Numbered from the stretch's first letter, positions 32,722 through 64,000 are shown. The stretch: DNA of 64,000 nucleotides from Gemmatimonadales bacterium (GCA_041615815.1 JBFJCP010000013.1:42704-106703), one strand, 5' to 3'. Numbers and translations: made by a program. The notes: generated by a model not told the origin, from the sequence alone.

Positions 32722-32832
32722 CAGTAGGAGGGAGTGGGAAGTGAGGGGTCAGAGGGAAGATTCGTGCAGGGAATGGCGAGCCCGAGGCGCAGCATCAACA
32801 CCCCGTTACCCCTCACTCCTCACCCCTCATCG
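32722..32832. repeat. Inverted pair of degenerate 7-mer arrays, no gene inside
   Basis: GAGTGGG AAGTGAG GGGTCAG ... CCCCTCA CTCCTCA CCCCTCA. Confidence 0.65.
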
Positions 32833-33553: not shown

Positions 33554-34033
33554 CTAGTACTTCATCGCCTCGAGTCCCAGTGCTTTCCTGAGCAGTGCCA
33601 TCTGACCGATATGATACGACTCGTGCTGCGCGAGAAACGTCACTCCGCCGAGCACCGTGCTATCGTCCACCGGAAAGCGCTGCGATGACGCCACTGCCAC
33701 CGTACTCTCACTCAACCCCTCAAGGATCCCGGCGAGTTCGCGTGCCACGCTCGACCATTCCTTCCTGATGACCGACATTGGGGGAAACTCTGGAATGTCC
33801 TCGATCCCCCGGGCAACAGTGAGCAAAGCCGAATGCGGGTTACCGATATGGCTTCCCAGGTACTCGCCCAGGAAGCATCGCGCGTCCGTGAGGTGACAGG
33901 CCAGGAATGCCAGGGAGTTGGTCGAGTCCGTAACCCGCTGCTGCGCTTGCTCGTCCGTGACGCCGTCGAGACAGTTGAGCAGCAATCTCGTATTGAGGGC
34001 GTATATCTCGCGCAGCGCGTGCAGCGACTTCAC
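33554..34033 (-). CDS. DinB family protein
   Basis: NSLAFLACHL; HESYHIGQMALLRKALG. Confidence 0.88.
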   Translation of the reverse strand: MKSLHALREIYALNTRLLLNCLDGVTDEQAQQRVTDSTNSLAFLACHLTDARCFLGEYLGSHIGNPHSALLTVARGIEDIPEFPPMSVIRKEWSSVARELAGILEGLSESTVAVASSQRFPVDDSTVLGGVTFLAQHESYHIGQMALLRKALGLEAMKY

Positions 34034-34051
34034 TCCTCACTCCTCACCGAT

Positions 34052-41171: not shown

Positions 41172-41723
41172 ATGACTCGACTCGCCCTCGCGGCAGTACT
41201 GGTGCTCGCCCATCCTGCCACGGTGCTCGCGCAACAGACGAGCCCCACGGGCGGTGAGGTTCCGCCGGCCAAGGCATCGGACGTCCAATCCGTGGATGCC
41301 ATCATCGCGGCGCTGTACGATGTCATCTCTGGACCCGCGGGCGAAAAACGTGATTGGGACCGGTTTCGCTCCCTGCACTTGCCCGAGGCGCGTCTCATCC
41401 CAACCGGCTTCCCTCAAGGAAGCGATCGTGCGCGCGCGCGTGTGATGACCGTCAATGACTACGTCACCAACAGCGGTCCGTTTCTCGAGGAGCGGGGCTT
41501 CTTCGAGGTCGAGGTGGGTCGTGTCACCGAGCGGTTCGAGAACATCGTCCATGCTTTTTCGACCTACGAGTCGCGCTGGAACCCGGACGACGCTGATCCC
41601 TTTCAGCGCGGTATCAACAGCATCCAGCTGATGTGGGATGGCGAGCGATGGTGGATCACGAATATCATGTGGCGCGGGGTGGGGCCGGAGTTCGAGATTC
41701 CGGGGAAGTATTTCAAGAAGTAG
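41172..41723 (+). CDS. Secreted NTF2-like hypothetical protein
   Basis: AGGAG RBS; signal peptide; LYDVISGPAG.RDWDRF, HAFSTYE, RGINSIQL. Confidence 0.85.
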   Translation: MTRLALAAVLVLAHPATVLAQQTSPTGGEVPPAKASDVQSVDAIIAALYDVISGPAGEKRDWDRFRSLHLPEARLIPTGFPQGSDRARARVMTVNDYVTNSGPFLEERGFFEVEVGRVTERFENIVHAFSTYESRWNPDDADPFQRGINSIQLMWDGERWWITNIMWRGVGPEFEIPGKYFKK

Positions 41724-41810
41724 GCGGGATCGGCGGGATCGGCAGGATGCGTGACATGGATGGCGTGGCCGACGTTTCCCCTGGTGTCCACCCATCCCGC
41801 CTATCCCACC
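41723..41810. repeat. Inverted pair of 9-mer arrays between convergent genes
   Basis: GGCGGGATC GGCGGGATC GGCAGGATG ... CATCCCGCC TATCCCACC. Confidence 0.7.
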
Positions 41811-48983: not shown

Positions 48984-49048
48984 CAGTGAAGTGAGGAGCG
49001 AGACGTGACGGATCGAGCATACCGCCACGGGCCCCTAGCTCCGAACAC

Positions 49049-50257
49049 CTACTTCAACGCCCCAAACGCCTCTCTCGCGGCCTGCATGCCTTCCACGATG
49101 TGCTCGTCCGGTGTGGCAAAGGAGAGTCGCAGGTATCCGTCCTGCATGAATCCGGTCCCCGAAGCGGTCACGACACCGGCTGTGAGAATCAAGTACTCGG
49201 CGACGTCATCCGAATTGCGGAGCACCGTGCCGTCGGGTGTGCGCTTTCCAAACGCTCCACGCACATCCCAGAACGAATAGAACGCGGCCGGTGAGGGCCA
49301 CACCTCGATGTGGGGGACGTCCTTGACCCGCTCGAGCAGTAAGTCGCGTTTCTGCTGCAGGTCGGCCTTCAGCTCGGGATCGTACGCGTGTGATATGGCT
49401 GCCAGAGCCGAGTATTGGGTGGGAACCGCAGGCCCCGACGTATAGTGGCTCTGGAGGTTTACCATGGCCGTAGTCAGGTCCCGAGGCCCCACGGACCACC
49501 CGATCCGGAGACCGCCGGTGCGACGAAAGTTCTTCGAGATACCGTCTACCTGAATGAGCCACGGTTTGGTCTCGTCATCCACGCGCGGTTCGGGGTAGGT
49601 GCCCCCATCGAAGGTGAGTCGCCAATACAACCGGTCCAGTACGAAGTAGACGCGATGCTCGACGCACACCTGCAGCAGCGATTCCACTTCTTCCTCGTCG
49701 TACAGCTGCGCAGTGGGATTCACCGGGCTGTTGAGGAGGAAGAGCTTGCTGTGCGGTCGCGCGGCGAGGTTTCGACGCAGATCGTCGGCGGTCACCTTCA
49801 GGTAGTTGGCCGCGCCCGCCGCGGGAAGGACCATGATCGGAGATGCATAGGACGCCACGGCCAGCGGTTGATAACTCACCCACGGAGCGGCATCGAACAG
49901 CACGGTGTCGGCGGGGTTGCAGATGGCGAGGAAAATATTAAAGAGGCTCTGCTTGGCCCCGGCGGTGATCACGACGTCCTCGATCCCGTACTCACCGCCC
50001 AGGTTCAGCCAATCCAGCACCGCCTGGCGGAGCTCCGGAACACCGGCGGGATCGCCGTACATCGTATGACCTTCGCGATAGGCGCGCTCTCCCGCCTCGC
50101 GGATGTGCGGCGGAAGGACGCCCTTGGTCTCACCGAGCCCGAAGTCATAGACCGGAAGACCGTGCGATGTGCGCTCAGCCGCTAGGCGTTTCAGCTCCAG
50201 CGTAAGGGACGGTCGAAATTTTGCGAGCTTTGCCGAGACGCGTTCGCTGTCGAGCAT
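49049..50257 (-). CDS. Class I/II PLP-dependent aminotransferase (aspartate aminotransferase-like)
   Basis: TAGAKQSL, NSPVNPT, D.LY, ISKNF..GLRIGW, YLRLSFAT. Confidence 0.9.
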   Translation of the reverse strand: MLDSERVSAKLAKFRPSLTLELKRLAAERTSHGLPVYDFGLGETKGVLPPHIREAGERAYREGHTMYGDPAGVPELRQAVLDWLNLGGEYGIEDVVITAGAKQSLFNIFLAICNPADTVLFDAAPWVSYQPLAVASYASPIMVLPAAGAANYLKVTADDLRRNLAARPHSKLFLLNSPVNPTAQLYDEEEVESLLQVCVEHRVYFVLDRLYWRLTFDGGTYPEPRVDDETKPWLIQVDGISKNFRRTGGLRIGWSVGPRDLTTAMVNLQSHYTSGPAVPTQYSALAAISHAYDPELKADLQQKRDLLLERVKDVPHIEVWPSPAAFYSFWDVRGAFGKRTPDGTVLRNSDDVAEYLILTAGVVTASGTGFMQDGYLRLSFATPDEHIVEGMQAAREAFGALK

Positions 50258-50291
50258 GTGGGGTGGGCCGTTAAGGGACGGGATAAGTTAG

Positions 50292-50363
50292 AGCAGGGGC
50301 GGGAGAGGCGGCAGGGGTAAACCCGTTCCGCTTCTTCATCTCCTTTCGCTACTTCCGCCTCTT
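50292..50363. repeat. Inverted pair of degenerate 9-mer arrays
   Basis: GCAGGGGCG GGAGAGGCG GCAGGGGTA ... CCGCTTCTT CATCTCCTT TCGCTACTT CCGCCTCTT. Confidence 0.6.
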
Positions 50364-50399
50364 TATCTTTCGCCCGCCACCGATCCCAATGAGGTCCCC

Positions 50400-51167
50400 A
50401 TGGACTGGCTGACCAATCCCGAGATTTGGATCGCCCTCGTCACGCTGACGTCACTGGAAGTCGTGCTGGGCATCGACAACCTCGTCTTCATCTCGATCCT
50501 CGCCGGGAAGCTGCCCCCGAGCGAGCAGAAGCGGGCTCGCCAAATCGGGCTGGTGGCTGCGATGGTGATGCGGATCCTCTTGCTCCTCTCGCTGGCGTGG
50601 ATCATTCGCCTCACGGCTCCATTGTTCACGGTGCTGGGCCAAGAGATTTCGGGACGCGACCTAATCCTGATCCTCGGAGGCGTGTTCTTGATCGCCAAGG
50701 GGACGAGCGAGATCCACGACAGACTCGAAGGCGAGGAGGGCCATGCCAGCGCCAAGGTGAAAGCCTCGTTCTGGTCGGTGATCACGCAGATCATGATATT
50801 GGACATTGTCTTCTCCCTCGACTCGGTGATCACGGCGGTGGGCATGGTGCGGCAAATCGGCGTGATGGTCGCGGCGGTCCTGATCGCCGTGGGGATCATG
50901 CTTCTTTCCGTGGAGGGGATCAGCCGTTTCATCAGCCGGCGGCCCACCGTCAAGATGTTGGCGCTCAGCTTTCTCCTCTTGGTGGGCTTCACCCTCGTGG
51001 CCGAGGGATTCGACCAGCACATCCCCAAGGGTTACATCTATTTCGCCATGGGCTTTTCCATCTTCGTGGAGGTCTTGAATCTGCGGGTGCGGGCCAAACG
51101 GGCCGCGGCACCCGTTGAGCTCCGGACGCCGTATACCGGAGAGCACCCGACCCAGACGACCGCCTAA
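50400..51167 (+). CDS. TerC family membrane protein
   Basis: LEVVLGIDN, DIVFSLDSVITAVG, KGYIYFAM. Confidence 0.93.
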   Translation: MDWLTNPEIWIALVTLTSLEVVLGIDNLVFISILAGKLPPSEQKRARQIGLVAAMVMRILLLLSLAWIIRLTAPLFTVLGQEISGRDLILILGGVFLIAKGTSEIHDRLEGEEGHASAKVKASFWSVITQIMILDIVFSLDSVITAVGMVRQIGVMVAAVLIAVGIMLLSVEGISRFISRRPTVKMLALSFLLLVGFTLVAEGFDQHIPKGYIYFAMGFSIFVEVLNLRVRAKRAAAPVELRTPYTGEHPTQTTA

Positions 51168-51248
51168 CAGGTCTGGGGACACCTGTGTATCTTTATCCCC
51201 GCCAACAAACGTCTGAGCGGTATCTGCACTACAATCCTCTGAGGAACC

Positions 51249-52547
51249 GTGGGCAAAGACACCCTTTCCGTTACCGATAATCGAACCGGCAACAGTTACG
51301 AGATCCCGATCTCTGACGGCACCATTCGCGCCCTCGATCTCCGTGCGATCAAGGTGAACGACGACGACTTCGGGTTGATGACGTACGACCCGGGGTTCAC
51401 GAACACGGCGTCGTGCCGCAGCGCCATCACCTTCATCGATGGCGGCAAGGGTATCCTCCGGTACCGAGGGTACCCCATCGAGCAGCTCGCCGAGGAGAGT
51501 ACGTTCCTCGAGACGGCGTATCTCCTGCTCTACGGAGAGCTCCCCAACAAAGCGGAGCTGGACCAGTGGATGTACGACATCACCCACCACACCTTCGTGC
51601 ACGAGAACGTCAAGAAGTTCATGGAGGGACTCCGATACGATGCCCACCCCATGGGTGCGTACATCAGTACGGTGGCGGCGCTCTCCACTTTCTATACGGA
51701 CGCTAAGCGTATTCGAGATTCCGAGGCCGCCGACCATCAAGTCCGGCGCCTCATCGCGAAGAGCCCCACGATTGCCGCCTTCGCGTATCGCCATATGGTG
51801 GGGCTGCCGTACGCATATCCGGACAACAGCCTCTCGTATGCCGGGAATTTCTTGAACATGATGTTCAAGACCACAGAACTGAAGTACGAACCGAACCCCG
51901 TGCTCGAGAAAGCGCTCGACGTCCTATTCATCCTCCACGCGGACCACGAACAAAACTGCTCTGCCAACGCCATGCGGAGCGTCGGCTCCAGCGAATCCGA
52001 TCCCTACAGCTCCATGGCCGCGGCGGCCGCGGCGCTTTACGGTCCGCTGCACGGCGGTGCCAACGAGATGGTGCTGCGGATGCTCCGGGAGATCGGGAGC
52101 ACGAAGAACATCCCGGATTACGTGAAACGAGTCAAAAACCGTGAAGTGCGCCTGATGGGGTTCGGCCACAGGGTGTACAAGAACTACGACCCCCGGGCCC
52201 AGATCATCAAGCGGATTGCCCATGAGGTCTTTGCGGTCACGGGGAAAAACCCCCTCATCGACATCGCGGTGGAGCTCGAGCGGATTGCGCTGAAGGACGA
52301 CTTCTTCATTTCGCGAAGCCTGTACCCCAACGTCGACTTCTACTCCGGCATCATCTACGAGGCGATGCGGTTCCCCGTGGAGATGTTCCCGGTCCTGTTT
52401 GCCATCGGCCGAACAGCGGGCTGGCTCGCCCAGTGGAAGGAGTTGATGTCGGACGACGAGCAGCGGATCGCGCGGCCCCGACAGATCTATATTGGGAGTG
52501 GGGAGCGGGATTACGTGCCGATTGGGAAGAGGAAGGGGAGGAAGTAA
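51249..52547 (+). CDS. gltA: Citrate synthase
   Basis: LHADHEQNCS, GPLHGGAN, GFGHRVYK, YPNVDFYSG. Confidence 0.95.
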   Translation: MGKDTLSVTDNRTGNSYEIPISDGTIRALDLRAIKVNDDDFGLMTYDPGFTNTASCRSAITFIDGGKGILRYRGYPIEQLAEESTFLETAYLLLYGELPNKAELDQWMYDITHHTFVHENVKKFMEGLRYDAHPMGAYISTVAALSTFYTDAKRIRDSEAADHQVRRLIAKSPTIAAFAYRHMVGLPYAYPDNSLSYAGNFLNMMFKTTELKYEPNPVLEKALDVLFILHADHEQNCSANAMRSVGSSESDPYSSMAAAAAALYGPLHGGANEMVLRMLREIGSTKNIPDYVKRVKNREVRLMGFGHRVYKNYDPRAQIIKRIAHEVFAVTGKNPLIDIAVELERIALKDDFFISRSLYPNVDFYSGIIYEAMRFPVEMFPVLFAIGRTAGWLAQWKELMSDDEQRIARPRQIYIGSGERDYVPIGKRKGRK

Positions 52548-52590
52548 GGGCGCAACTGGGCAGAGGCGGTTCTCCGACGGAATCCTCGAG

Positions 52591-54426
52591 CTACGGAATC
52601 CTCAGGCCCGGGATCCCACGCGTGACCCGTCGGAGCTCCTCTTCGAGCCGACTCCTCAAGTCCTGAGCTTCCTGGAGTTGCTGACCGACGACCTGCTCGA
52701 CCTCCGTCCGCACAGCCTGGAGCCGAGCCCGCGCCTCGGTAATGCGCGGCTGAACCAGCCGGTCCACCTCCGCCCGGACTTGCTGCTCCGCTCGCTGGAT
52801 CTCCGCGCCTAGCTCCCGGCGGAGACTCGCGGCCAAGGCATCGGCCAGATTCGTCCGCACGTAGAGCGCAGGGCGCTCGATACGACCGCGGAGACCCATA
52901 TCGATCTCCACCTGCCGGATCCCCGCGAGCGTTCGCCACAAGAGATCTCGGCCCCACGCCGCCGTCCCGACCCGAAGCGATGCCACCACCGAGTCCCGAC
53001 GCACCCACGTGACCGCGTTGGCCACCCACTCCAACTGGGCATCCAACTGATCACCCACTCGGGACAATGAGAACCGCGCGTTTCCCTGCCCCAGCTCGAG
53101 CCGACCACCTACGACATCGAGATCGATGCCGGGCAAGCCAACCCCACTCAACTGGAGCATCACCGAGTCCCGCAGCGGCCGCTCGCCGTGTGCGAGCTGG
53201 GCTGCGAGACGCACGTCCCGCGGTCCTCGGACCGCCCCCGTGCGGGCGGCCGCTATCTCGATCGGTCGCCCGTACAGCGCTGGGGCGGAGGAGAGGCCAC
53301 GCACCAACGCCACATAGTTTCCGGCCTCCGTTCCGGTCCCGCCAATGGCGAAATCCGTCTCACCATGCAGGAGGAGGAACCGTGGATAGGTGGCCCGACC
53401 GGGATAATGGACCGTGGTTCCCGGAGCCCGCGCCCGTCTCGGGCCGGGGAACCGCTTCGGGTCCAGTCCAGGAGGGACGAATCGCTCGGCGGCACGGACC
53501 CAGTAGAGCACCGGCTTCATCCAGGTCACCGCCGTCTCGCCAAACAACCCCGGGGAAAGACTCGGGGCTTCGAGCGATGGCAGCCGCAACAGGCTCCGCG
53601 CATACGCCAGATCGGCGTCCCGAGTCGCTGCGAACTCCCCCACGTTCGCTTGGAGGGCGCCTACGCCGGCTCGGACGGCGCTGTCGAGGCTCGCGAGACG
53701 GTCCCGCAAGCCGGTGATTCCCGAGAGACGCGCCCGGCCGTCGTTTACCAGGCTGGTCACGCCGGCGATCCCGAGCTGAACCGGGTTCGCGTTCTCGAGG
53801 CGCCGCACGAATGCGCGGGCAGAATCCAGTTGCGGCCTGGGATCCAGGGCGACCAGGCGGCTCTCCCATGCACCTCGCATCGAGTCCACACGCGCCACCA
53901 TGGCCCGGGCGTGTGCGAGGGTGCGGAGACTGTCCGCGCTCAGCGCACTCACATCCACCACGCCGCCAAGGCCTTCCAGGCTCAGGGACGGGATTCTGAT
54001 GCGGTCCGCCCAGGAATTGACTTCTCGCCAGAGCTGGCCACTGCCCGGCGGCGGATTCTCGAGTGCGCCCGACGTGGCTCGAGGCGTACCGAAGCGGACA
54101 CCCCGGATGGCCAGGGTCTCGACTACCACCTTCTTCTCGAGAAGTGGTGGCATCATCACGTTGGCGACGACCTCACGCGCCTCGACGAGATTCGTCATGG
54201 GCGCGTCGGGATTGGCGACTTGGAGCCCTCGCAGGACGACCACGCCGTCGCCCACCCGAACGTCAGCCTCGCCGACATCGACCTTCGCTCCCACGATCGA
54301 AGCGCCCGCCTCCTCCACCCCCTTGGCGACCAACCGATCGAGGAGGAGCCACCAACCCACCACCAGCAGCACGAGGAGGAGAACCATCGGAATGAATGCG
54401 CGGAGCCGCAGCAAGCGTTTCAGCAT
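52591..54426 (-). CDS. TIGR03545 family (AsmA-like) protein
   Basis: N-terminal TM; GAKVDV, LQVANPDAPMTNL, FGTPRATSG; adjacent to TIGR03546. Confidence 0.8.
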   Translation of the reverse strand: MLKRLLRLRAFIPMVLLLVLLVVGWWLLLDRLVAKGVEEAGASIVGAKVDVGEADVRVGDGVVVLRGLQVANPDAPMTNLVEAREVVANVMMPPLLEKKVVVETLAIRGVRFGTPRATSGALENPPPGSGQLWREVNSWADRIRIPSLSLEGLGGVVDVSALSADSLRTLAHARAMVARVDSMRGAWESRLVALDPRPQLDSARAFVRRLENANPVQLGIAGVTSLVNDGRARLSGITGLRDRLASLDSAVRAGVGALQANVGEFAATRDADLAYARSLLRLPSLEAPSLSPGLFGETAVTWMKPVLYWVRAAERFVPPGLDPKRFPGPRRARAPGTTVHYPGRATYPRFLLLHGETDFAIGGTGTEAGNYVALVRGLSSAPALYGRPIEIAAARTGAVRGPRDVRLAAQLAHGERPLRDSVMLQLSGVGLPGIDLDVVGGRLELGQGNARFSLSRVGDQLDAQLEWVANAVTWVRRDSVVASLRVGTAAWGRDLLWRTLAGIRQVEIDMGLRGRIERPALYVRTNLADALAASLRRELGAEIQRAEQQVRAEVDRLVQPRITEARARLQAVRTEVEQVVGQQLQEAQDLRSRLEEELRRVTRGIPGLRIP

Positions 54427-54429
54427 TCG

Positions 54430-54948
54430 CTAGGGTCGAAACAGTTTATAGACGTTGTACAGCTTGGATGCCCGAATAGCCTTGAAGAATCTGGCGTCCT
54501 TGTAGCGAGCATAGACCGTCGCTCGGTATCGCCCCACCCCCCAGCGTGTCAGCAGAAAGATGGGAAACGCCAGCACCAACCAGCTTACGAGACTCCCCAA
54601 CACCACACTATTGGTCAGGTTCGTCAGCGCGAGCACAGGGGTGTTATAGATCGTTGACCACGTGGCGGAGAGGGCGGGCACCTCCATGAGGAGTGCGCGT
54701 CCAACAGCATCAAACACGGGATCGAGCGCAAACCCGAGGGGCACACACAAGAACCATCCCAGGAGTGCGCCGGGTACCGAGACGTTCAGCAACAGGACGG
54801 CGATGAGCACGAGCACGTTGTGGATGTTGATGAGGGGTGTGAGCCCCACGGCGGCCCCGAGCGCCATCCCGGCCCCAACCTGCCCCGGGGTCCCTTCAGA
54901 ATTGAGCGCTTTGACGAGGCTCTGTATCAGCTTGATGAGCCAGTACAT
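54430..54948 (-). CDS. TIGR03546 family membrane protein
   Basis: ALNSEGTPGQ, GLTP, LDP.FD.VG, TNSVVLGS. Confidence 0.85.
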   Translation of the reverse strand: MYWLIKLIQSLVKALNSEGTPGQVGAGMALGAAVGLTPLINIHNVLVLIAVLLLNVSVPGALLGWFLCVPLGFALDPVFDAVGRALLMEVPALSATWSTIYNTPVLALTNLTNSVVLGSLVSWLVLAFPIFLLTRWGVGRYRATVYARYKDARFFKAIRASKLYNVYKLFRP

Positions 54949-54983
54949 GGGAGAAGTCTTGGGGGGTCGTTGGGGGATTGTCT

Positions 54984-55036
54984 AGGGGCAGGGGCAGGAG
55001 GGGATAGGAGGGGCAGGAGAGGCAGGAGAGGCAGAA
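54984..55036. repeat. Purine-rich 9-mer array, left arm of four-helix-bundle cassette 1
   Basis: GGGGCAGGA GGGGATAGGA GGGGCAGGA GAGGCAGGA GAGGCAGAA. Confidence 0.8.
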
Positions 55037-55054
55037 GTCGTTTCCGGCCTGGGA

Positions 55055-55409
55055 TCAACGCCTCCCTCTCTTGAGCAAAGCAAAGAGGCCTGCTGCCATC
55101 CGCCGTCGCAGCGAGTCTATTCCCTGGAGCAAGGAGTCGTCGAGTTGATAGAGAGTTGGCAACGTACACCGCATCGAGTCGACCTCGGCCAAACTTGAGA
55201 TCGCGATGTCAAAGAAGCGGCGTCGTTCGCGGCCTACCTAAACGCGCGTTTCCTTCGGCAATGTTGTTCTGAATGGACCAAGCTGCACGTCGGAGCTGTG
55301 GAGTCGCTACGAAGCGTTCGTCCTTAGGCAGGCTTTTCGTAAGCTGGTAAACGAGACGAATGAGCTCGCCGGCCATATTCCACACCTCGAGCCGCCGGTG
55401 AAGATTCAT
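55055..55409 (-). pseudogene. Four-helix-bundle protein (TIGR02436 / 23S rRNA-IVP family) with a single +1 frameshift
   Basis: LEVW, QLRRAAWSIQNNIAEG; continues in the shifted frame as ERRRFFDIAISSLAEVDSM...LLKRGRR*; 355 nt = 118 codons + 1. Confidence 0.85.
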
Positions 55410-55483
55410 GGCGCCAAAATAGGATTGACAGCTGCGGCACCTGGCTCGTTCCTACGCGTCCAACATCATTGATACGCCTCTAG

Positions 55484-55550
55484 CTGACTCCTCTGACTCT
55501 GCTGCCTCCGCTGCCCCATCTGCCCCCCTCCTGCCCCTGCGGCCCCTCTC
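55484..55550. repeat. Pyrimidine-rich 9-mer array, right (inverted) arm of cassette 1
   Basis: CTGACTCCT CTGACTCTG CTGCCTCCG CTGCCCCAT CTGCCCCCCT CCTGCCCCT; its reverse complement contains AGGGGCAGGAGGGG, identical to the left arm. Confidence 0.8.
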
Positions 55551-55564
55551 TGTAAATTCCCCCC

Positions 55565-57724
55565 ATGCCGATTCGATCTCTCGACGCCATCCTGCGCCCC
55601 AGCTCGATTGCCGTCATCGGGGCCTCACGCCAACCCAACACCATCGGTTGGCACATCATCGACAATCTGCTGAAGCATGGCTTTCAGGGCCCCCTCTACC
55701 CCGTCAACCCCAAGGCCCGTTCCATTCATTCCATTCCGGCCTTCCCGTCCATCGCCGACGTGCCCGGACCGGTGGATCTGGCCGTCATCGCGGTACCGAA
55801 AGAGTATGTCGTGGAGGTGGCCACGCAGTGCGCTGAGTGCGGGGTCAAAGGACTCGTGGTGATCTCTGCCGGGTTCAAGGAGGTGGGTGGCCCGGGTGTG
55901 CAACGGGAAGAGGAGCTGCTCGCCGTCACTCGCAAATCGGGCATGCGGATGGTGGGCCCCAACTGCCTCGGCGTGATCAACACGGAGCCGGACGTGCAAA
56001 TGAACGCGACCTTCGCACCCAACATGCCACCGCCCGGTCCGGTGGCGTTCATCAGTCAGTCGGGCGCGATGGGTCTCAGCGTGTTGGACTATGCGCAGAG
56101 CCTTGGCATTGGGGTTTCCATGTTCGTCTCGTCGGGGAACAAGGCGGACGTGAGTGGGAACGATCTCCTCGAGTATTGGCAAGACGACCCGGCCACGCAG
56201 GTCATCCTCATGTACATCGAGAGCTTCGGAAAGCCGGCGAGATTCGTGGAGTTGGGACGGGAGATCACCCGCGAAAAACCCATCTGCATCGTGAAGTCCG
56301 GCCGCACCGGTGCCGGGCAACGCGCGGCGGCCTCGCACACGGGCGCGCTTGCCGGAACGGAGTTGGCTACCGACGCGATCATCGGACAGGCCGGGGCCAT
56401 TCGGGCGCAGACCGTCGAGGAGCTGTTCGACCTCGCCATGGCGTTCTCGAATCAACCCCTGCCGGCGGGTAACCGCGTGGCGATCGTGACCAATGCGGGG
56501 GGGCCGGGAATCATCATCGCGGACGCCTGCGAGTCATTTGGGCTCGAAATCCTGCGACTCTCGCTCGAGACGGAAGAGCAACTGCGTGCCAAGCTTCCCG
56601 AGGAGGCAAGCGTCAAGAACCCCGTGGACCTGATCGCATCCGCCACACCCAAGAGCTACGAGTTTGCCCTCAAGTGTGTGTTCGACGACGAGACCGTGGA
56701 TGCGGCCATCGCGGCGTTCGTCCCGCCACTCGGGATTCAGGCCAAGGACGTCGCCGAGGCCATCGTTCGAGTCAACAAACAACACCCGGAAAAACCGTTG
56801 CTGGCCGTCTTGATGGGGAAGGAGGGTGTCCCCGCCGGCATGGCCGAACTGCACGAGGCGCGTGTCCCCGCGTACATCTTCCCCGAATCGGCGGCCAGGG
56901 CGCTCGGGGCGATGTGGCGCCAGCGCCGTCGCCTGCAGCGGTCACGCGGACGGATCGTCGAATTCGACACCGATGACCGGAAGGTCGAGCGTATTCTCGA
57001 CGCCACCTTGGCCGAGGGACGCGCCAAGCTCTCCGAGCCGAATGCGCTCCGTCTCCTCGAGGCCTATGGCATCGCGGTGTTGCCCTGGGAGTTCGTGTCG
57101 AAGGAAGGACCGGGAAGCTTACCGTCGACGACTGCCGACGCCGCATCCGGTATCGGGTTCCCCGTCGCCATTAAGATCGTGAGTCCCGAGATCGTTCACA
57201 AGACGGATGTTGGCGGCGTTCGGTTGGGCCTCAAGTCCAAGACCGAGGTCGAGCGGGCAGTCCGCGAAATGATCAAGCGGGTGCGGGAATGGGGAGCGAA
57301 GAGCGGGGAGCCGGGAGCAGGACGGCATGACGAACCAGCGATTTCCGGGGTGTTAGTGCAGCAGATGGCGGACGGGGGAACCGAGACCATCGTGGGACTC
57401 ACCCGGGTTCCGGGTGTGGGGCCGCTGGTCATGTTCGGACTCGGCGGGATCTATGTTGAGGTGATGCGAGACGTGGTGCTCCGGTTGAGTCCGGTTCGCG
57501 ATAGCGACGCGGAGGAGATGGTTGCGGGCGTCCGGCTCCACAAGCTCCTCGAAGGGGTGCGCGGCCAGCGCCCGCGTGACAAGCGAGCACTGGTGGAAGC
57601 GATCCTCCGACTTTCACAGCTCGCGCAGCGACACCCCCGGATCGCCGAAATGGACATCAATCCACTCCTGGCCCTTGAGGAGGGGAGCGTGGCGATCGAT
57701 GCCAGAGTGCAGTTGCACAAGTGA
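55565..57724 (+). CDS. Acetate--CoA ligase (ADP-forming) family, CoA-binding plus ATP-grasp fusion
   Basis: SIAVIGAS, GPNCLG, SQSGA, GNKADV, ASHTGALAG, HKTDVGGV, EMDINP. Confidence 0.92.
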   Translation: MPIRSLDAILRPSSIAVIGASRQPNTIGWHIIDNLLKHGFQGPLYPVNPKARSIHSIPAFPSIADVPGPVDLAVIAVPKEYVVEVATQCAECGVKGLVVISAGFKEVGGPGVQREEELLAVTRKSGMRMVGPNCLGVINTEPDVQMNATFAPNMPPPGPVAFISQSGAMGLSVLDYAQSLGIGVSMFVSSGNKADVSGNDLLEYWQDDPATQVILMYIESFGKPARFVELGREITREKPICIVKSGRTGAGQRAAASHTGALAGTELATDAIIGQAGAIRAQTVEELFDLAMAFSNQPLPAGNRVAIVTNAGGPGIIIADACESFGLEILRLSLETEEQLRAKLPEEASVKNPVDLIASATPKSYEFALKCVFDDETVDAAIAAFVPPLGIQAKDVAEAIVRVNKQHPEKPLLAVLMGKEGVPAGMAELHEARVPAYIFPESAARALGAMWRQRRRLQRSRGRIVEFDTDDRKVERILDATLAEGRAKLSEPNALRLLEAYGIAVLPWEFVSKEGPGSLPSTTADAASGIGFPVAIKIVSPEIVHKTDVGGVRLGLKSKTEVERAVREMIKRVREWGAKSGEPGAGRHDEPAISGVLVQQMADGGTETIVGLTRVPGVGPLVMFGLGGIYVEVMRDVVLRLSPVRDSDAEEMVAGVRLHKLLEGVRGQRPRDKRALVEAILRLSQLAQRHPRIAEMDINPLLALEEGSVAIDARVQLHK
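57285..57326 (+). repeat. In-frame 6 x 7-mer array inside the acetate--CoA ligase
   Basis: GGGAATG GGGAGCG AAGAGCG GGGAGCC GGGAGCA GGACGGC (42 nt), same unit type as the cassette 2 arms. Confidence 0.7.
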
Positions 57725-57808
57725 GAGCGCAGAGGACAGAGGTGTGAGCGGCGAGAAGAAAATGGCCGTTCGGCCGTTTTCAGTTCTAACGGACGGGAAA
57801 TCACCGAC

Positions 57809-58711
57809 ATGAATGTCTTTCTGACTGGCGGAACCGGCTTCATCGGACGCAAACTCGTGCGCCGATTGATCGATGAAGGCCACAAGTGTGTCGTGGTGTC
57901 GCGATCTGGCAGCAACCCGTGGAAACACGATGCCGTGCGGGTCATCGAGGGCAATCCATCGGAACCGGGGTCGTGGCAGGAAGAAGTGGCCAGCGCGGGT
58001 GCGGTGTTCAACCTCGCAGGAGAGCCACTCGTGGATCCGCTCAATCGCTGGACGGACGCGCGCAAGGCTACCCTTCGAACGAGTCGGGTCGACACCACCC
58101 GACACGTCGCGCAGGCCATTCGCAACGCCACCGAGGCGCCGGCGGTGCTCGTGAGCTCCTCCGCGGTCGGCTATTACGGGGATGCGGGGGACACCGAGTT
58201 GGACGAGAACTCACCAACCGGCAACGACTTTCTCGCCCATCTCTCCCTCGAGTGGGAGCGTGCGGCCTTGGATGCGGCATCGCGAACGCGGGTGGTGCTG
58301 GCGCGGACCGGCATGGTGCTGGCACCTGGCGGAGGTGTGCTCGAGCCGTTGCTCCCCCTCTTCAAACTGGGCCTCGGAGGGCCGTGGGGTAGCGGCAAGC
58401 AGTGGTGGCCATGGATTCACATGGCGGACGAAGTGGGGTTGTTGCGGTTTGCCATGGATCACGACGTCTCGGGAGCGGTCAATCTGACTGCTCCGAGTCC
58501 CGTGACGGTCAACGAATTCGCCAAGGCACTGGGGAATGCCCTCAAGCGACCCTCGTTCTTGCGGGCGCCGGAAGCGGCCCTTCGTCTGGCGTTGGGAGAA
58601 GCCGCGGATGCATTACTCGCCTCGCTCAGAGTCTTGCCGAGGCGCGCACTCGAGGCCGGCTATCAGTTTCAATTCCCGACGCTCGAGCCCGCGCTCGCGG
58701 ATCTGTTTTAG
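57809..58711 (+). CDS. TIGR01777 family NAD-dependent epimerase-like oxidoreductase
   Basis: TGGTGFIG, NLAGE, SSSAVGYYG, GSGKQWWPWIH. Confidence 0.92.
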   Translation: MNVFLTGGTGFIGRKLVRRLIDEGHKCVVVSRSGSNPWKHDAVRVIEGNPSEPGSWQEEVASAGAVFNLAGEPLVDPLNRWTDARKATLRTSRVDTTRHVAQAIRNATEAPAVLVSSSAVGYYGDAGDTELDENSPTGNDFLAHLSLEWERAALDAASRTRVVLARTGMVLAPGGGVLEPLLPLFKLGLGGPWGSGKQWWPWIHMADEVGLLRFAMDHDVSGAVNLTAPSPVTVNEFAKALGNALKRPSFLRAPEAALRLALGEAADALLASLRVLPRRALEAGYQFQFPTLEPALADLF

Positions 58712-58750
58712 GGCGGGGAGCAGGGAGCAGGGAGCGGGGAGCAGGGGGGG
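58712..58750. repeat. 7-mer array, left arm of four-helix-bundle cassette 2
   Basis: GGGAGCA GGGAGCA GGGAGCG GGGAGCA. Confidence 0.85.
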
Positions 58751-58756
58751 AACCGA

Positions 58757-59122
58757 TCATCCGTTACGAGGACGACTCAGGCTTCGTATGAGGCCGAAAA
58801 GGGTGGCGGCCGTCTTGTCGGCTACGGACTGGAGCTCTGTTGCAGTTGCACTCTGCAGATAGCCGCGTTCGACAACCAGTGTGAGAAGTTGTTGTACTTC
58901 TACGGCCGATCCCAACGCGATCCGGAGCTGCCGCCGGAACGTGGGCGTTGTACCGTAAGCGTATCCCTCGGCGATGTTCAGTTGTACGGATATCGCCGCG
59001 CGCCGAAGGTGGTCGAAGACTGGATGTCGTCCCCGAGATCCCAGCCCATCCGTGGTCTCGAGTACACCGAGGCACAATTGATGAGCATGTTGCCACGCGG
59101 CGAGTGATTTGAATTTGTCCAC
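58757..59122 (-). CDS. Four-helix-bundle protein (TIGR02436 / 23S rRNA-IVP family)
   Basis: FKSLAAWQ, HLRRAAISVQLNIAEG, IALGSAVEV, LFGLIRSL. Confidence 0.9.
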   Translation of the reverse strand: MDKFKSLAAWQHAHQLCLGVLETTDGLGSRGRHPVFDHLRRAAISVQLNIAEGYAYGTTPTFRRQLRIALGSAVEVQQLLTLVVERGYLQSATATELQSVADKTAATLFGLIRSLSRPRNG

Positions 59123-59183
59123 GCGGTAACGTTGTACCCAGAGCGGTGCCGATCTTCCATCGTTCTTGTGCGCCGATGATCAA

Positions 59184-59259
59184 TCCCGCTCCCCGCTCCC
59201 CGCTCCCTGCTCCGAGCTCCCTGCTCCGAGCTCCCCGCTCCCCGCCCCCTGCTCCCCGT
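59184..59259. repeat. Inverted 7-mer array, right arm of cassette 2
   Basis: About 10 units of CCCCGCT / CCCTGCT / CCGAGCT, the reverse complement of the left-arm unit. Confidence 0.85.
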
Positions 59260-59261
59260 TG

Positions 59262-59537
59262 TCACATCCCCGGCAGCCTCCGTGTGTCCTTCGCTCCATG
59301 CGCCACGCCAACCCCCACGCCGGTTCCAAAGACGAGCGCCGAGATCGTGCCGACCACGGGCAGGAGCGCCACGACCGGGGCGGCCACGAGCGCGGCGGCC
59401 GCACCGGTAATGAGCGGGGCAGCCGGCTTTTTCACGGCATCAACGTAGCGGAGCTTGCCACGGACGAATTGCCGTGTCTTGAGATATCCGATGGCCGTTG
59501 CCGCACCAGTGCCGGCCAGCCAAAGCAGTTCGATCAT
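59262..59537 (-). CDS. Small hypothetical membrane protein
   Basis: GGAGG RBS; RQFVRGKLRYVDAV followed by Gly/Ala-rich TM segments. Confidence 0.8.
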   Translation of the reverse strand: MIELLWLAGTGAATAIGYLKTRQFVRGKLRYVDAVKKPAAPLITGAAAALVAAPVVALLPVVGTISALVFGTGVGVGVAHGAKDTRRLPGM

Positions 59538-59560
59538 GGTATCCTCCCTCTGTTACACCT

Positions 59561-59587
59561 GACGGGTACCCGCCGCCCCAGGTTTCA
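59561..59587 (-). promoter_or_regulatory. ECF-sigma-type promoter candidate
   Basis: TGAAAC-N17-CGTC on the minus strand, 24 nt upstream of ATG59537. Confidence 0.4.
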
Positions 59588-59643
59588 TCCGGGCCTGGCA
59601 ATCACCTTGACCGGCATCAGTCACGGAGCCACCATTCGGGACC

Positions 59644-60279
59644 ATGCCCCGTGAAATCATCGTGCGCTGGATCATTGACGGCGGCTCCTACGTGTCCCGA
59701 TTTCGGGAGAAGGAGCGCATCGTCAACCAGGCAGTGATCCCCATCCTCGCCACTCCCGCCGTGAAGGATTTCGCCACGGACTACTTCGTGAGCAAGCGGC
59801 GCGGCACCGAAGTGTGGCTCACCATGTTTGCATCCGACCGCGAAATTCCGCCGCTGCGTGAGGCGGTCGAAGGTGAGCTATACGACTTCGCGTGGCGTCA
59901 CGAACGCGTGGATGAGGGCGATCCGCTGCTGGCACCGGCTTTCCGCAGCTATCGTCGCCGACTGCGGGAGGTGACCGACGTTGCCCTCGACCTGCACGGC
60001 GATCCAAATCTGGTGGAGCATCAGATGTTCCTCATCCAGATTGCATGCGGGACCGACGACAACGCACGTGAGTTGCACGATTTCCTGGTCCAGTACAGCG
60101 CCACCTACGCCACCTTCCCCGAACATCACAAGATCGCCTTTTGGAACGAGTTTACTCAACCGGCGCCCGATTCCAGTCTTCCGGCCCCGATCCAGTGCTT
60201 CTGGAACATCGTCTTGGGATGCGAGCCCGCACCCGGCGGAAACCCGGCAGCCGTGGCGGATATGTTGGGAATAGCATAA
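59644..60279 (+). CDS. Hypothetical protein
   Basis: Host-like codon usage; no recognised motif. Confidence 0.7.
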   Translation: MPREIIVRWIIDGGSYVSRFREKERIVNQAVIPILATPAVKDFATDYFVSKRRGTEVWLTMFASDREIPPLREAVEGELYDFAWRHERVDEGDPLLAPAFRSYRRRLREVTDVALDLHGDPNLVEHQMFLIQIACGTDDNARELHDFLVQYSATYATFPEHHKIAFWNEFTQPAPDSSLPAPIQCFWNIVLGCEPAPGGNPAAVADMLGIA

Positions 60280-60362
60280 CTGTTGGCGGTCGGAAAGTCA
60301 GATAGACGGAAGGTCAAAATCGAAGGGCTGAAGATGAGAAGAGCGGAGACCGCGCCACCTGC

Positions 60363-61811
60363 TCACCTGATGACTCTTCCATGAGCGGTGGACCCCGCGG
60401 TTGTGGGTGCCGCTGCCACCACCCGGTCTCGTCCCCCCCGTTTTGCCACATAGCACGCCGCATCGGCGTCGCCAATGAGGCGCTGGCCACTCGCGGGCCA
60501 TTCTTCGGTGGCCGCGGTACCGAGGCTCAGCGTGACACGGATCGGATATCGCACCCCTTCGGTCACCAACGGCTGATCTGACACGGTCCGACGAATCCGT
60601 TCCGCGAGATTCCGGGCGTCGGCCGGCCCCGTGTGCGGGAGAAGTACCACAAACTCCTCGCCGCCCCATCGAAACAGGAGATCGTGTTCACGCATCACGC
60701 CCCGCACCCGATTCGGCAACAATCGGAGGACGCGGTCCCCGACCTCATGGCCGTAGGCATCGTTCACCCGTTTGAAGTCGTCGATATCAAAGAAGACGAC
60801 CGAGATCCCCTGATTCAAGCGCCGGCTGCGCTCGGCTTCTCGCTGGAAGAAATCGGCGAACGCGCGTCGGTTGTAGCACCCTGTGAGCGTGTCGCGTAGC
60901 GCCTCTCGACGCTCGCGCTCGCTGATACTGGCGAGGGCCGAGCTGAAGATCCACGCGGTGAGCAGCGTGACGGCGAAGAGCAGCCCCAGGAACAGGCCAA
61001 TCTGCGCAAACCGATCCAGCACACGTTCGCCCCCGGGTGTCGTTACCGTCGCGGCAACCTGAAGGGTCTCGGCCACCATGCCCACGCCGCGGAACACCAA
61101 GACTCCGAGCAGGCTGAGCGCCAGGAGTACGAAGCCCACCGCGCGGGGATAGCTGATTCGGCGACGTGGCGGAATCCCCACCTGCCGATCCATCCAGCGC
61201 CTGACGCCCGGGCCCCACCAGTGCAGCACCGGCGCGGTGATCAGCCAGAACTGCACGACATCGCCGATGACCCATCCCTGCCAGATCCGTTGACCTGTGA
61301 CGAGGTCCAGACCCTGTGTCTGGTTCCACATGAGGGCCGCGAGCGACGACGCCGTAGCGGCAATGAGGGTGACCGGCAAATACCGACTGAGATCCCGGAG
61401 CGTTCGCAGGTCGGGCTGAATCTGCAGCGTCACCATGGATCCCCAGATCAGCAGCAGCTCCACAGGCGTCGCCGCGGCAAACAGCACGGCAACGTCCAGG
61501 GTCATCCCGCCAAGCAACCCGCTCACCAGCGTGGCGGTGTAGGCGGGGATCATCCCCCAGAGGGGACCCATCCACACCGTGAGCAGCAGGGTCACGAGAA
61601 GAGGGGGATAGACCGTGACCCCCACCGTCACGCCGGCGATCGTGATGGGGAGACCGCTCCAGCCCAGGCGCGCCTCCAGGACGGCCGCCAGGATGCCCAG
61701 GAAACTGATCACGAGCCAAAGCGCAACGATGTTCCGGACCCCGGGTCTCCCTATCTCGCGCCATGCGATCGAGAGCGGCCACCACCCAGGTCCACGGTAG
61801 GGAGTCTCCAT
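60363..61811 (-). CDS. Membrane-bound diguanylate cyclase (multi-TM sensor plus GGDEF domain)
   Basis: D.LTG.YNRR, DIDDFKRVND.YGH..GD, RWGGEEF; RxxD I-site (REHD). Confidence 0.92.
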   Translation of the reverse strand: METPYRGPGWWPLSIAWREIGRPGVRNIVALWLVISFLGILAAVLEARLGWSGLPITIAGVTVGVTVYPPLLVTLLLTVWMGPLWGMIPAYTATLVSGLLGGMTLDVAVLFAAATPVELLLIWGSMVTLQIQPDLRTLRDLSRYLPVTLIAATASSLAALMWNQTQGLDLVTGQRIWQGWVIGDVVQFWLITAPVLHWWGPGVRRWMDRQVGIPPRRRISYPRAVGFVLLALSLLGVLVFRGVGMVAETLQVAATVTTPGGERVLDRFAQIGLFLGLLFAVTLLTAWIFSSALASISERERREALRDTLTGCYNRRAFADFFQREAERSRRLNQGISVVFFDIDDFKRVNDAYGHEVGDRVLRLLPNRVRGVMREHDLLFRWGGEEFVVLLPHTGPADARNLAERIRRTVSDQPLVTEGVRYPIRVTLSLGTAATEEWPASGQRLIGDADAACYVAKRGGRDRVVAAAPTTAGSTAHGRVIR

Positions 61812-62247
61812 GATCGGCCAATTTGAAACGGAATGACGGGAGGTGGGAAGGTTGGAAGGACGGTCGGCGGATCGGAAGATACCGACCACCGGACCGATCA
61901 GCCCCGGGGAGCGGCTCGGTGCGACGGGGACCAGTCGCGTGCGGGGGGATGGGGGTTGGGGTCCGGCGAAGGGCTAGTCGGTTGCTGGTAACTACCGTCC
62001 AAACAGCTGTCCCGCCGCCGGCGTTACCACTACCTCGAACCGGTCGCCTTGGCGGGCGTCTTCGGCAAAGAGCTCCGCCCGCGAGCTAACCGAATCCTGC
62101 CACACGATCACGATCAACAGCCCTCAAACTTAGGAAACCAGGAAGGCGGACCTCAGAATACGGTCTGACCGTCTTCCTGGTGTGGCCGTGGCAACGGGTG
62201 GACCCGCCGGGGCCGAGGAGTGATGTGGAGGGGGACCGCCGAGAAAG

Positions 62248-62319
62248 AGCCACCGGTCGGAATCGAACCGACGACCACTCGATTACGAATCGAGAGCTCT
62301 ACCTCTGAGCTACGGTGGC
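62248..62319 (-). tRNA. tRNA-Thr(CGT)
   Basis: GCCACCG/CGGTGGC acceptor stem; CTCGA-TT CGT AA-TCGAG anticodon arm; GGTTCGATTCC T-arm; CCA not encoded. Confidence 0.95.
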
Positions 62320-62362
62320 TGGTGCGCGGTGGGAACGACGAGGAATTCGACCTGAATTCGGA

Positions 62363-62389
62363 CCGCCAATCCCGCCAATCCCGCCAATC
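62363..62389. repeat. Three exact copies of CCGCCAATC in the tRNA spacer
   Basis: Direct reading. Confidence 0.85.
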
Positions 62390-62421
62390 CGCCGGGGTGG
62401 CGGAGGAGTAGCGGTGGATCA

Positions 62422-62503
62422 TGCCCTGGCCCGGATTCGAACCGGGACGGCTCTCGCCACTGCCCCCTCAAGACAGCGTGTCTACCAGTTCCACCACCAG
62501 GGC
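62422..62503 (-). tRNA. tRNA-Leu(GAG)
   Basis: GCCCTGG/CCAGGGC acceptor stem; CTGTC-TT GAG GG-GGCAG anticodon arm; long variable arm; GGTTCGAATCC; CCA not encoded. Confidence 0.95.
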
Positions 62504-62811
62504 GTGCTGAGGGGGCGTAACCCCCTGAGGGAGAGGAAGCTATCGGGAAATGGGGGGCGGGGTCAAGCGGTCGCGCGAGCGCTGCGGGCTCGGCGTGGCG
62601 GTGGCGGTGCCGCGTGATCGGCTTTCTTCGAAAAGCGGCGGCCGCAGACGCAGGGGCGTCCGGGCCCATCGGACGGACTACCCGTCACGCTGGACAGCGT
62701 CTTCTTGGCCTGGTCTCGATCCCCCTGGCCACCGGCGCCGAGACGTCACATTATGGGGGGATCCGTCAGCAGCGACCCGCACGCACCCGTCTAAGGAAAA
62801 AGGGGGGAGTC

Positions 62812-63912
62812 ATGCTCCGCCGTCCGGCCTCTCTCTACACTGTGCTTCTCATTTGGCCAACCGCGATGTTCGCTCAAGGAGGCGAGTCGGCGCCCCAGTC
62901 GATGATGACCGACGTCCCGCTGTTCGCCGCCCACGAGGCCATCAACTTCACGATCGAGGCACCGCTCGAGAGCATCATGAAGCAGCGAGATCAAGAGAGC
63001 GAGGAGATGCCAGGTGCCGTGATGATCGAGTCACCGGAAGGCGTGCAGGTCACGGTTCCCGTGAAGATTCGAACGCGTGGCAAGGCGCGCCTGCAAAAAC
63101 GGGTGTGCAAGTTCCCCCCACTACGGCTCAACTTCCCCCAGGACTCCGTGGCCGGGACCCCGTTCGAGGGTCAGGACAAACTCAAGCTGGTAACGCACTG
63201 TCAGGACGACCGGGAGGAGTACGAGCAGTACGTGCTGCTCGAGTACTTGATCTACCGCACGTACCAGATGTTCACCGACATGAGCTTCCGGGTTCGCCTC
63301 GCCAAGATCACGTATCACAACACGGAGAAAGAAGACGAACCGGTCACGCGGTACGGCTTCCTGATCGAGGACGAGGACATGATGGCGGCCCGGGCTGGTT
63401 GGCAGTATTTGAAGCTCCCCGTCATTCCGCCGACGTCCGTCGACCCTGCCAACCTCGCCCTCCTCGAGATGTTCGAGTACTTCATTGGCAACACGGACTT
63501 CTCCGCATTCATGCGGGAGCCCGAGAAAGATGAGTGCTGCCACAATACCAAACCCATCGGGAACCCCGCGGGGCCGGTGTTCTCGGTGCCGTATGACTTC
63601 GACCTTGCGGGGCTCCTCGACACCCGCTATGCGAACCGTCTGTATCGGGGGAACCTCGAGAAGATGGAGCTCCGCTCCGTACGGGATCGCTTATATCGTG
63701 GATGGTGCGAGTCTCGGACCCACGTGCCCGACATCATCCAAGCGTTCAACGAAAAACGCGACCCCATCTACGAACTCTACAGACAACAGCCTGATCTCGA
63801 GCCCAAGGTGCTCGAGGAGACGCTCGAATACTTCGACAAGTTCTACGAGACGATCAACGACGAGCGGAAGACCAAGCGGCAGATCTACGACAAGTGCCGC
63901 GCACTGCAGTAG
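62812..63912 (+). CDS. Secreted hypothetical protein with CotH-like atypical kinase motifs
   Basis: Signal peptide; TRG..R...C.FPPLRL, KLKLVTHC, EYLIYR.Y, IGNTD, HN, PYDFD. Confidence 0.7.
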   Translation: MLRRPASLYTVLLIWPTAMFAQGGESAPQSMMTDVPLFAAHEAINFTIEAPLESIMKQRDQESEEMPGAVMIESPEGVQVTVPVKIRTRGKARLQKRVCKFPPLRLNFPQDSVAGTPFEGQDKLKLVTHCQDDREEYEQYVLLEYLIYRTYQMFTDMSFRVRLAKITYHNTEKEDEPVTRYGFLIEDEDMMAARAGWQYLKLPVIPPTSVDPANLALLEMFEYFIGNTDFSAFMREPEKDECCHNTKPIGNPAGPVFSVPYDFDLAGLLDTRYANRLYRGNLEKMELRSVRDRLYRGWCESRTHVPDIIQAFNEKRDPIYELYRQQPDLEPKVLEETLEYFDKFYETINDERKTKRQIYDKCRALQ

Positions 63913-64000
63913 AACGGAGCGGCAAGCGGACAGACCCATAACGGAGTGGTAACGGCAAGGCCGCAACGTGAGATCGGGCGGCGCGGGGAATCCCCGCGCC

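Follow-up and report, generated by a model that had tools for sequence, protein, structure and literature searches.

Four-helix-bundle genes between inverted tandem-repeat arms: a candidate mobile cassette in Gemmatimonadales

The window analyzed here is a 64,000-nt stretch of a Gemmatimonadales bacterium genome (GCA_041615815.1, JBFJCP010000013.1:42704-106703; the genome is called G000 below, and its congeners G001 and G002), of which positions 54,984-59,259 were studied. Two genes of the four-helix-bundle family PF05635/TIGR02436 lie in this region, each enclosed by two inverted short-tandem-repeat arrays, as a sequence-only reading of the window had noticed. TRF recovered 9-mer arrays at 54990-55034 and 55478-55550 around gene 1 (cassette 1) and 7-mer arrays at 58716-58746 and 59185-59258 around gene 2 (cassette 2), with inverted pairs at 55000-55035/55492-55527 (78%) and 58713-58746/59191-59224 (88%). 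The arm-to-arm local scores of 52 (cassette 1) and 49 (cassette 2) were each equaled by 0/2000 flank shuffles, and cross-cassette scores were just 15 and 24. Both genes, previously read as divergent, are encoded on the minus strand; the host context differs, with cassette 1 between divergent genes (TIGR03546 and acetate--CoA ligase) and cassette 2 between convergent ones. The reported order of purine arm, gene and pyrimidine arm is present, but both strands of any inverted pair read purine-first, so it describes the polarity of the pair and not the coding strand. Both genes are more AT-rich than their surroundings, as had been judged by eye: their GC contents (0.563 for gene 1, 0.582 for gene 2) compare with 0.59-0.68 in six neighbors and are lower than the 5th percentile (0.587) computed from 565 small gene calls.

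In cassette 1, the left arm (54988..55039) comprises ~5 units of a GRGGCAGGA-type 9-mer and constitutes the 3' (pyrimidine) arm of gene 1, while the right arm (55478..55550), a degenerate 9-mer array, is its 5' (purine) arm; the whole cassette folded as DNA gave z -2.9. Gene 1 (55055..55409, minus strand) belongs to the assigned family, yet it is not the single open reading frame first described, as it carries a frameshift near codon 60. The N-terminal half (55209-55409, 66 aa) matches PF05635 positions 2-55 (PF05635 60 bits, TIGR02436 50.2 bits; cut-offs 33.8 and 24), whereas the part encoding the C-terminus is read in a different frame (55055-55237). Contigs from two studies (X4, and X5 from another study) span the site without an indel, so the shift is no one-off assembly error; X5 shows 8 substitutions over 4.6 kb. 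A programmed frameshift is unlikely, given that the orthologue in G002 is intact and two related loci (L158 and L001) are broken at other positions. A predicted -10 hexamer of the form TAnnnT (55416..55421, minus strand) lies 6 nt ahead of the gene 1 ATG, where it may serve a leaderless promoter. Immediately outside the arms, we located by eye, in filled and gene-less alleles alike, a conserved host motif that resembles a -35 hexamer for TIGR03546 (54978..54985, minus strand) and, just beyond the right arm, a putative host -10-like hexamer (55553..55558, plus strand) 6 nt 5' of the acetate--CoA ligase ATG. Because these divergent promoter-like motifs fall outside the arms, no host mRNA carrying both arms is expected at this site. 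Contigs of one further set (X6) end at 54982 and restart at 55533, at the edges of cassette 1; none joins across, and they were set aside.

Cassette 2 is the intact counterpart. Its left arm (58713..58751, ~4.5 units of GGGAGCR) adjoins the stop codon of the TIGR01777 gene and is the 3' arm of gene 2, and its right arm (59185..59258, 10.6 units of the 7-mer) is the 5' arm and adjoins the stop codon of a 91-aa host gene. Gene 2 (58757..59122, minus strand) encodes 121 aa (PF05635 78.8 bits, TIGR02436 76 bits; cut-offs 33.8 and 24), is related to a Xanthomonas structure (PDB 2GSC, E 1.4e-10) and has its closest named relatives mostly in Gemmatimonadales. A predicted -10 hexamer of the form CAnnnT (59129..59134, minus strand) lies 6 nt ahead of its GTG start. 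Folded as RNA, the whole cassette forms a terminal stem (z -6.1). The cassette-2 unit also occurs as an in-frame run (57285..57321, plus strand) in the part of the acetate--CoA ligase gene that encodes a variable loop, where four relatives carry different low-complexity inserts. Joints that skip cassette 2 were rejected since their sides measure just 21-29 nt and likely derive from other arrays, and G000 yielded no match to the joined form; weak CasDinG matches (E ~0.1) were taken as chance. The neighboring 91-aa gene (59262-59537), which has no Pfam or NCBIfam match, is present in 113/121 family genomes, nearly always as a single copy, and represents a conserved unnamed family.

The PF05635 family was detected in 35/41 relatives, at 0-13 copies per genome. 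G000 contains four matches: genes 1 and 2, a copy on contig C36 that has 7-mer arms but is broken at its 3' end, and an armless copy on contig C12. GxxExxY (TIGR04256) had no match in G000. To examine whether arm, gene and arm form a unit, as had been proposed, we gathered 114 family genes from the genomes of relatives and from records of gene relatives, of which 104 had enough flank (10/114 were dropped for short flanks). The inverted match between the 200-nt flanks exceeded the 99th percentile of 3454 control genes in 93/104 family genes, against 1% of controls by construction; the controls all come from G000 alone with crude start calls, and related family genes are not independent. Inverted arrays are thus far commoner here than at random genes, and the unit is supported by a hold-out set of 40 family genes fetched later, mostly weaker matches, in which 32/38 scored genes (2/40 dropped) lay above the threshold. 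The arms are locus-specific: only 4.2% of mismatched flank pairs passed the same threshold, and the own flank partner ranked first in 65/104 genes. The two top-scoring control genes were, in first place, a 104-aa membrane-type ORF on contig C39 (C39:8460-9060) and, after it, gene 2 itself. The C39 ORF lies inside nested 7-mer inverted arms and has a weak DUF4231 match (21.3 bits) and no family match above the cut-off; it is possibly foreign cargo carried between arms.

The suggestion that each protein clade is tied to its own repeat period also held. A period (7, 8, 9 or 10) could be assigned confidently to 53 proteins (45/98 rows dropped); their tree requires 9 changes of period, compared with a null mean of 17.3 and with 0/1000 label shuffles as low, on a tree of 117 columns with many weak forks. 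Metagenomic relatives of gene 1 at 52-70% identity carry 9-mer arms at several unrelated junctions, as judged by eye, and many clades with different repeat units coexist within one genome. The family genes are under purifying selection (median pN/pS 0.26 in 89 pairs, which were selected for >=62% identity and are not independent), and decayed copies are frequent, with 12/114 genes in the first set and 17/40 in the hold-out not intact-like. A divergent PF05635 clade lacks arms altogether (C12:46137-46421 in G000; L089; L095), is syntenic in all three congeners and lacks the promoter-like hexamer described below. This clade looks domesticated, and its existence shows that the protein can persist without arms, which counts against the cassette model.

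The absence of an obvious Shine-Dalgarno (SD) sequence from both genes was confirmed, and in each a YAnnnT hexamer lies 6 nt ahead of the start codon. Across the family, this hexamer occurs 5-7 nt ahead of the start in 77/109 genes, compared with 189/3514 control genes, with 4/109 family genes at two offset windows and with a shuffle mean of 7.5. The pattern was picked after looking at ~10 loci; in the hold-out set, collected later, it was found in 19/27 genes (offset, 1/27). SD-like words precede only 8/109 family genes compared with 961/3514 controls. A -10 hexamer at such a distance from the start codon marks leaderless transcription, and a leaderless start from this -10-like element likely explains the missing SD. 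The distance from the end of the 5' arm to the start codon has a median of 81 nt, and the 3' arm starts roughly at the stop codon; the C-rich 3' arm would therefore be the only one in the predicted own mRNA, since a leaderless start would fall downstream of the 5' arm.

Cassettes are also oriented non-randomly relative to the host gene downstream, which is on the opposite strand at 56/70 loci (47/58 distinct host genes, ~80% head-on). Upstream host genes are unbiased (36 vs 34), and the hold-out set gave opposite-strand host genes downstream in 16/20 and upstream in 15/22 cases. The 5' arm contains more G than C in 82/93 genes. The 3' arm has a pairing probability of 0.87-0.94 in the predicted read-through RNA, compared with 0.46-0.58 in the predicted own mRNA. 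We speculate from these folds that Rho could load on the free C-rich 3' arm in the own mRNA, whereas pairing would hide this site in read-through RNA. With 25/87 orientation calls dropped as unclear or short, 58/62 classified cassettes sit where a host transcript could enter, and 4/62 (site 1, i.e. that of cassette 1, and three others) lie between divergent genes.

Comparison of orthologous sites, which the sequence-only reading had called for, revealed filled, empty and reversed alleles, so that vertical inheritance lacking gene-less alleles does not describe these loci. Among 30 loci at site 1, a family gene is present only in G000 and G002, and 14 loci have the host genes 45-174 nt apart. 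G002 encodes the intact gene 1 orthologue (66-67% identical) flanked on each side by a 9-mer that differs from that of G000 (its own arms score 29 as a pair, cross pairs 14-25); the two arms of this site therefore change together. In G001, arms of the G000 type enclose an opposite-strand remnant of the gene's last ~25 codons (0/2000 shuffles, pairwise scoring), an assignment that depends on pairwise scores, as the match to the family profile is not significant (E 0.067) and an assembly artefact in G001 is possible. Site 1 thus offers a natural series within one genus: intact, frameshifted and reversed remnant. Two family members (genomes) carry gene-less arms there with periods of 7 and 10, as seen by eye.

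At site 2, the position of cassette 2, 0/29 other loci had a family match, and where TIGR01777 lies within range, at 10 loci, the position is occupied by other small genes or by gaps of 426-966 nt, which leaves no clean empty allele. At six loci (L205, L207, L210, L211, L214 and L219), a gene for a small Arg/Asp/Glu-rich repeat protein lies between TIGR01777 and the 91-aa gene. More broadly, of 32 armed loci whose two flanks could both be placed on neighboring genes of G000, 24 fall at 19 junctions that are gene-less in G000, with gaps of -17 to 161 nt. Within each of two pairs of loci (L001/L049 and L058/L123), the same junction is occupied by cassettes of opposite orientation; the L058 and L123 proteins share 33/115 residues and belong to unrelated clades. 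The four G000 copies are 24-43% identical in the three pairs computed, and no very recent transposition was seen. Empty alleles at the sites compared are strongly diverged from filled ones, and no target-site duplication could be defined. Elsewhere in the window, the divergent aminotransferase/TerC junction (50257-50400) is gene-less, and a metagenome contig (L158:2370-2930) has a frameshifted cassette of the gene 1 type there; residual arms at the window's junction were rejected because their score of 17 falls within that of 20 shuffles (12-24). A gene-less 7-mer inverted pair is visible by eye in G002 (L035:7220-7300) at the convergent end of the acetate--CoA ligase gene.

Gene-less arrays are common in G000. 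The cassette-2 unit forms 39 arrays there and 0 in a shuffled genome, and all close opposite-strand pairs (8/8, one being cassette 2) are purine-first. Counted as matches, the unit occurs 43 times in G000, 0 times in G001 and once in G002, beside a broken family gene; both congeners are without cassette 2 at site 2. The top count, 67, was obtained in G038, a genome that has a cassette with this unit on both arms; this cassette is one of gene 2's five nearest relatives. Four other genomes have 15-27 matches, and no cassette with the unit on both arms was present among the loci fetched from them. Further short 7-/9-mer arrays are scattered through the window (62363-62390, 41723-41748, 32799-32829 and 34030-34047), one of them just past the tRNA at 62248-62319.

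The four-helix-bundle gene and its two inverted arms form one unit with locus-specific arms and a period that tracks protein clade; it is found filled, empty or reversed at the same host junctions, and it decays. On balance, we lean towards reading it as a single cassette that is likely selfish and mobile, with a predicted leaderless promoter and a protein that likely recognizes its own arms. The cassette would express its protein from this promoter, and by analogy with 2GSC and Avd the protein may assemble into a pentamer. It would then bind its cognate repeats, probably as DNA, since arms are kept even at sites where no single transcript is expected to span both. Gene-less arm pairs may be non-autonomous remnants or offspring, and the head-on orientation may have been selected because such cassettes neither fire into host genes downstream nor block them. 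As for movement, our guess is that host recombination or repair acts on the paired ends. To our knowledge, no catalytic motif has been described for the PF05635 family. No reverse transcriptase had been noticed in the window, and no PF00078 match was found in the whole of G000 (95.7% complete); one was found in 7/41 genomes, which are drafts, and in none of the six genomes with 7-13 family genes. Matches to the Y1 transposase (PF01797) were found in 17/41 draft genomes and not in two of those six, and G000 has one weak match, on another contig. Presence of either enzyme does not track cassette number.

A bolder form of the same reading, which we regard as possible though doubtful, is that these are autonomous mobile elements of a new class, which lack any recognized nuclease, recombinase or reverse transcriptase. 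An Avd-like pentamer would read ~5 tandem units per arm, the period (7, 8, 9 or 10) being fixed by the geometry of its ring, and would join the ends for host enzymes to move the cassette or the arms only; such an element would be the source of both ORF-bearing rRNA intervening sequences (IVSs) and the lineage-specific heptamer repeats of bacteria, for which an explanation has long been lacking.

The sequence-only reading had instead suggested that the arms pair as an IVS-like stem that loops out the ORF. For an RNA element outside rRNA, this would mean that the arms base-pair whenever host transcription reads through the cassette, that RNase III cuts the resulting stem, and that the arms are kept as they make the insert harmless to the host mRNA. 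The terminal stem of cassette 2 agrees with this part of the proposal, as do the higher pairing of the 3' arm in read-through RNA and the 58/62 cassettes open to host transcripts; in the Coxiella IVS, according to the accessible text of PMC4990558, a terminal stem of 28 bp is accompanied by heptamers repeated in tandem upstream of S23p, and RNase III cleaves the insert. Against it, the predicted own mRNA lacks the 5' arm, no rRNA lies in the window, and cleavage without religation would account for tolerance and not for spread. An RNA stem cannot be the whole story because site 1, between divergent promoter-like motifs (one of the 4/62), keeps matched arms whose unit differs between G000 and G002. 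As a complete explanation we therefore judge it improbable, although RNase III processing may be a secondary role compatible with a mobile cassette. Somewhat less probable again is a host-beneficial regulatory pair, in which the protein binds dispersed arrays at junctions (as terminators, insulators or nucleoid sites), resembling co-opted REP/RAYT, and the gene moves only by incidental recombination between arrays. The 39 arrays, the uniform polarity of close pairs, the purifying selection and the family's presence in 35/41 relatives all suit such a role, and RAYT/REPIN co-option is discussed in the accessible text of PMC3337134. It fits poorly with a copy number of 0-13, with the broken copies in both sets, with many clades of different units in one genome, and with turnover of the unit between congeners. 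A passive association, in which slippage-born repeats form hairpins at junctions and catch small foreign genes by chance, could draw on the many gene-less arrays, the enclosed C39 ORF and the two family members in which site 1, by eye, has arms with other periods and no gene. It is already largely refuted by the 93/104 inverted flanks, the period that tracks clade and the match of arms to their own locus over others, and we give it very little weight relative to a mobile cassette.

Among known systems, the cassette is like a cross of two and a member of neither, because it is not in rRNA and its protein is not an HUH transposase. The 23S rRNA IVS (Coxiella S23p, accessible text of PMC4990558) shares the protein family, an insert length of ~450 nt, a terminal stem, tandem heptamers on the 5' side of the ORF, a poor SD and ORF decay in some lineages; a terminal complementary stem encloses the ORF in both cassettes here as well. 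Unlike the IVS, the cassettes are intergenic, have periods of 7-10 and a predicted leaderless promoter of their own, and occupy some sites outside expected host transcripts. The Rfam search of the window found one tRNA (62248-62319) and no rRNA, the flanks being protein genes, and apart from the tRNA no covariance model, Gut-1 included, matched at E<=1 in 49000-64000. RAYT-REP/REPIN systems, in the accessible text of PMC3337134, likewise combine a short gene flanked by inverted repeats, dispersed extragenic gene-less doublets and a repeat type tied to protein type. However, RAYT is an HUH/Y1 transposase, whereas the protein here is a helical bundle without such a motif and with PF05635 as its sole match; the arms are tandem arrays and not palindromic REPs, and here the gene itself changes site. 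The protein also shares a homologous fold with Avd of diversity-generating retroelements, a positively charged pentamer that binds structured RNA (accessible text of bioRxiv 10.1101/2023.10.23.563531 and PMC10053308). It differs in that the Avd model NF033474 scored 20.4 bits for the gene 1 N-terminal half (cut-off 80) and did not match gene 2, and in that no reverse transcriptase was found in G000.

Although PF05635 is very common, no function is known for this family, and there is no accepted origin for the 7-9-mer repeats dispersed in bacteria. Cyanobacterial STRRs are intergenic heptamer arrays of such a lineage-specific kind. The same applies to the Xanthomonas GGGAATC (PMC4692102) and Beggiatoaceae TAACTGA (PMC4679880) heptamers, whose arrays are intergenic, often form inverted pairs and are of unexplained origin according to the accessible text of both sources, in which the term 'four helix' is absent; the arrays described here differ in being linked to a flanked gene whose clade tracks their period. 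Our literature search, confined largely to main texts outside subscription journals, returned no account of such a cassette outside rRNA, and PMC5524665 merely lists the gene in a table. The cassettes are real, widespread and apparently undescribed in print. That protein clade and arm unit change together allows a direct binding test for both protein and repeats. The putative leaderless promoter and the head-on orientation, in turn, predict a transcription start at the start codon with the 5' arm outside the own mRNA, which separates a DNA-level element from an IVS-type RNA element.
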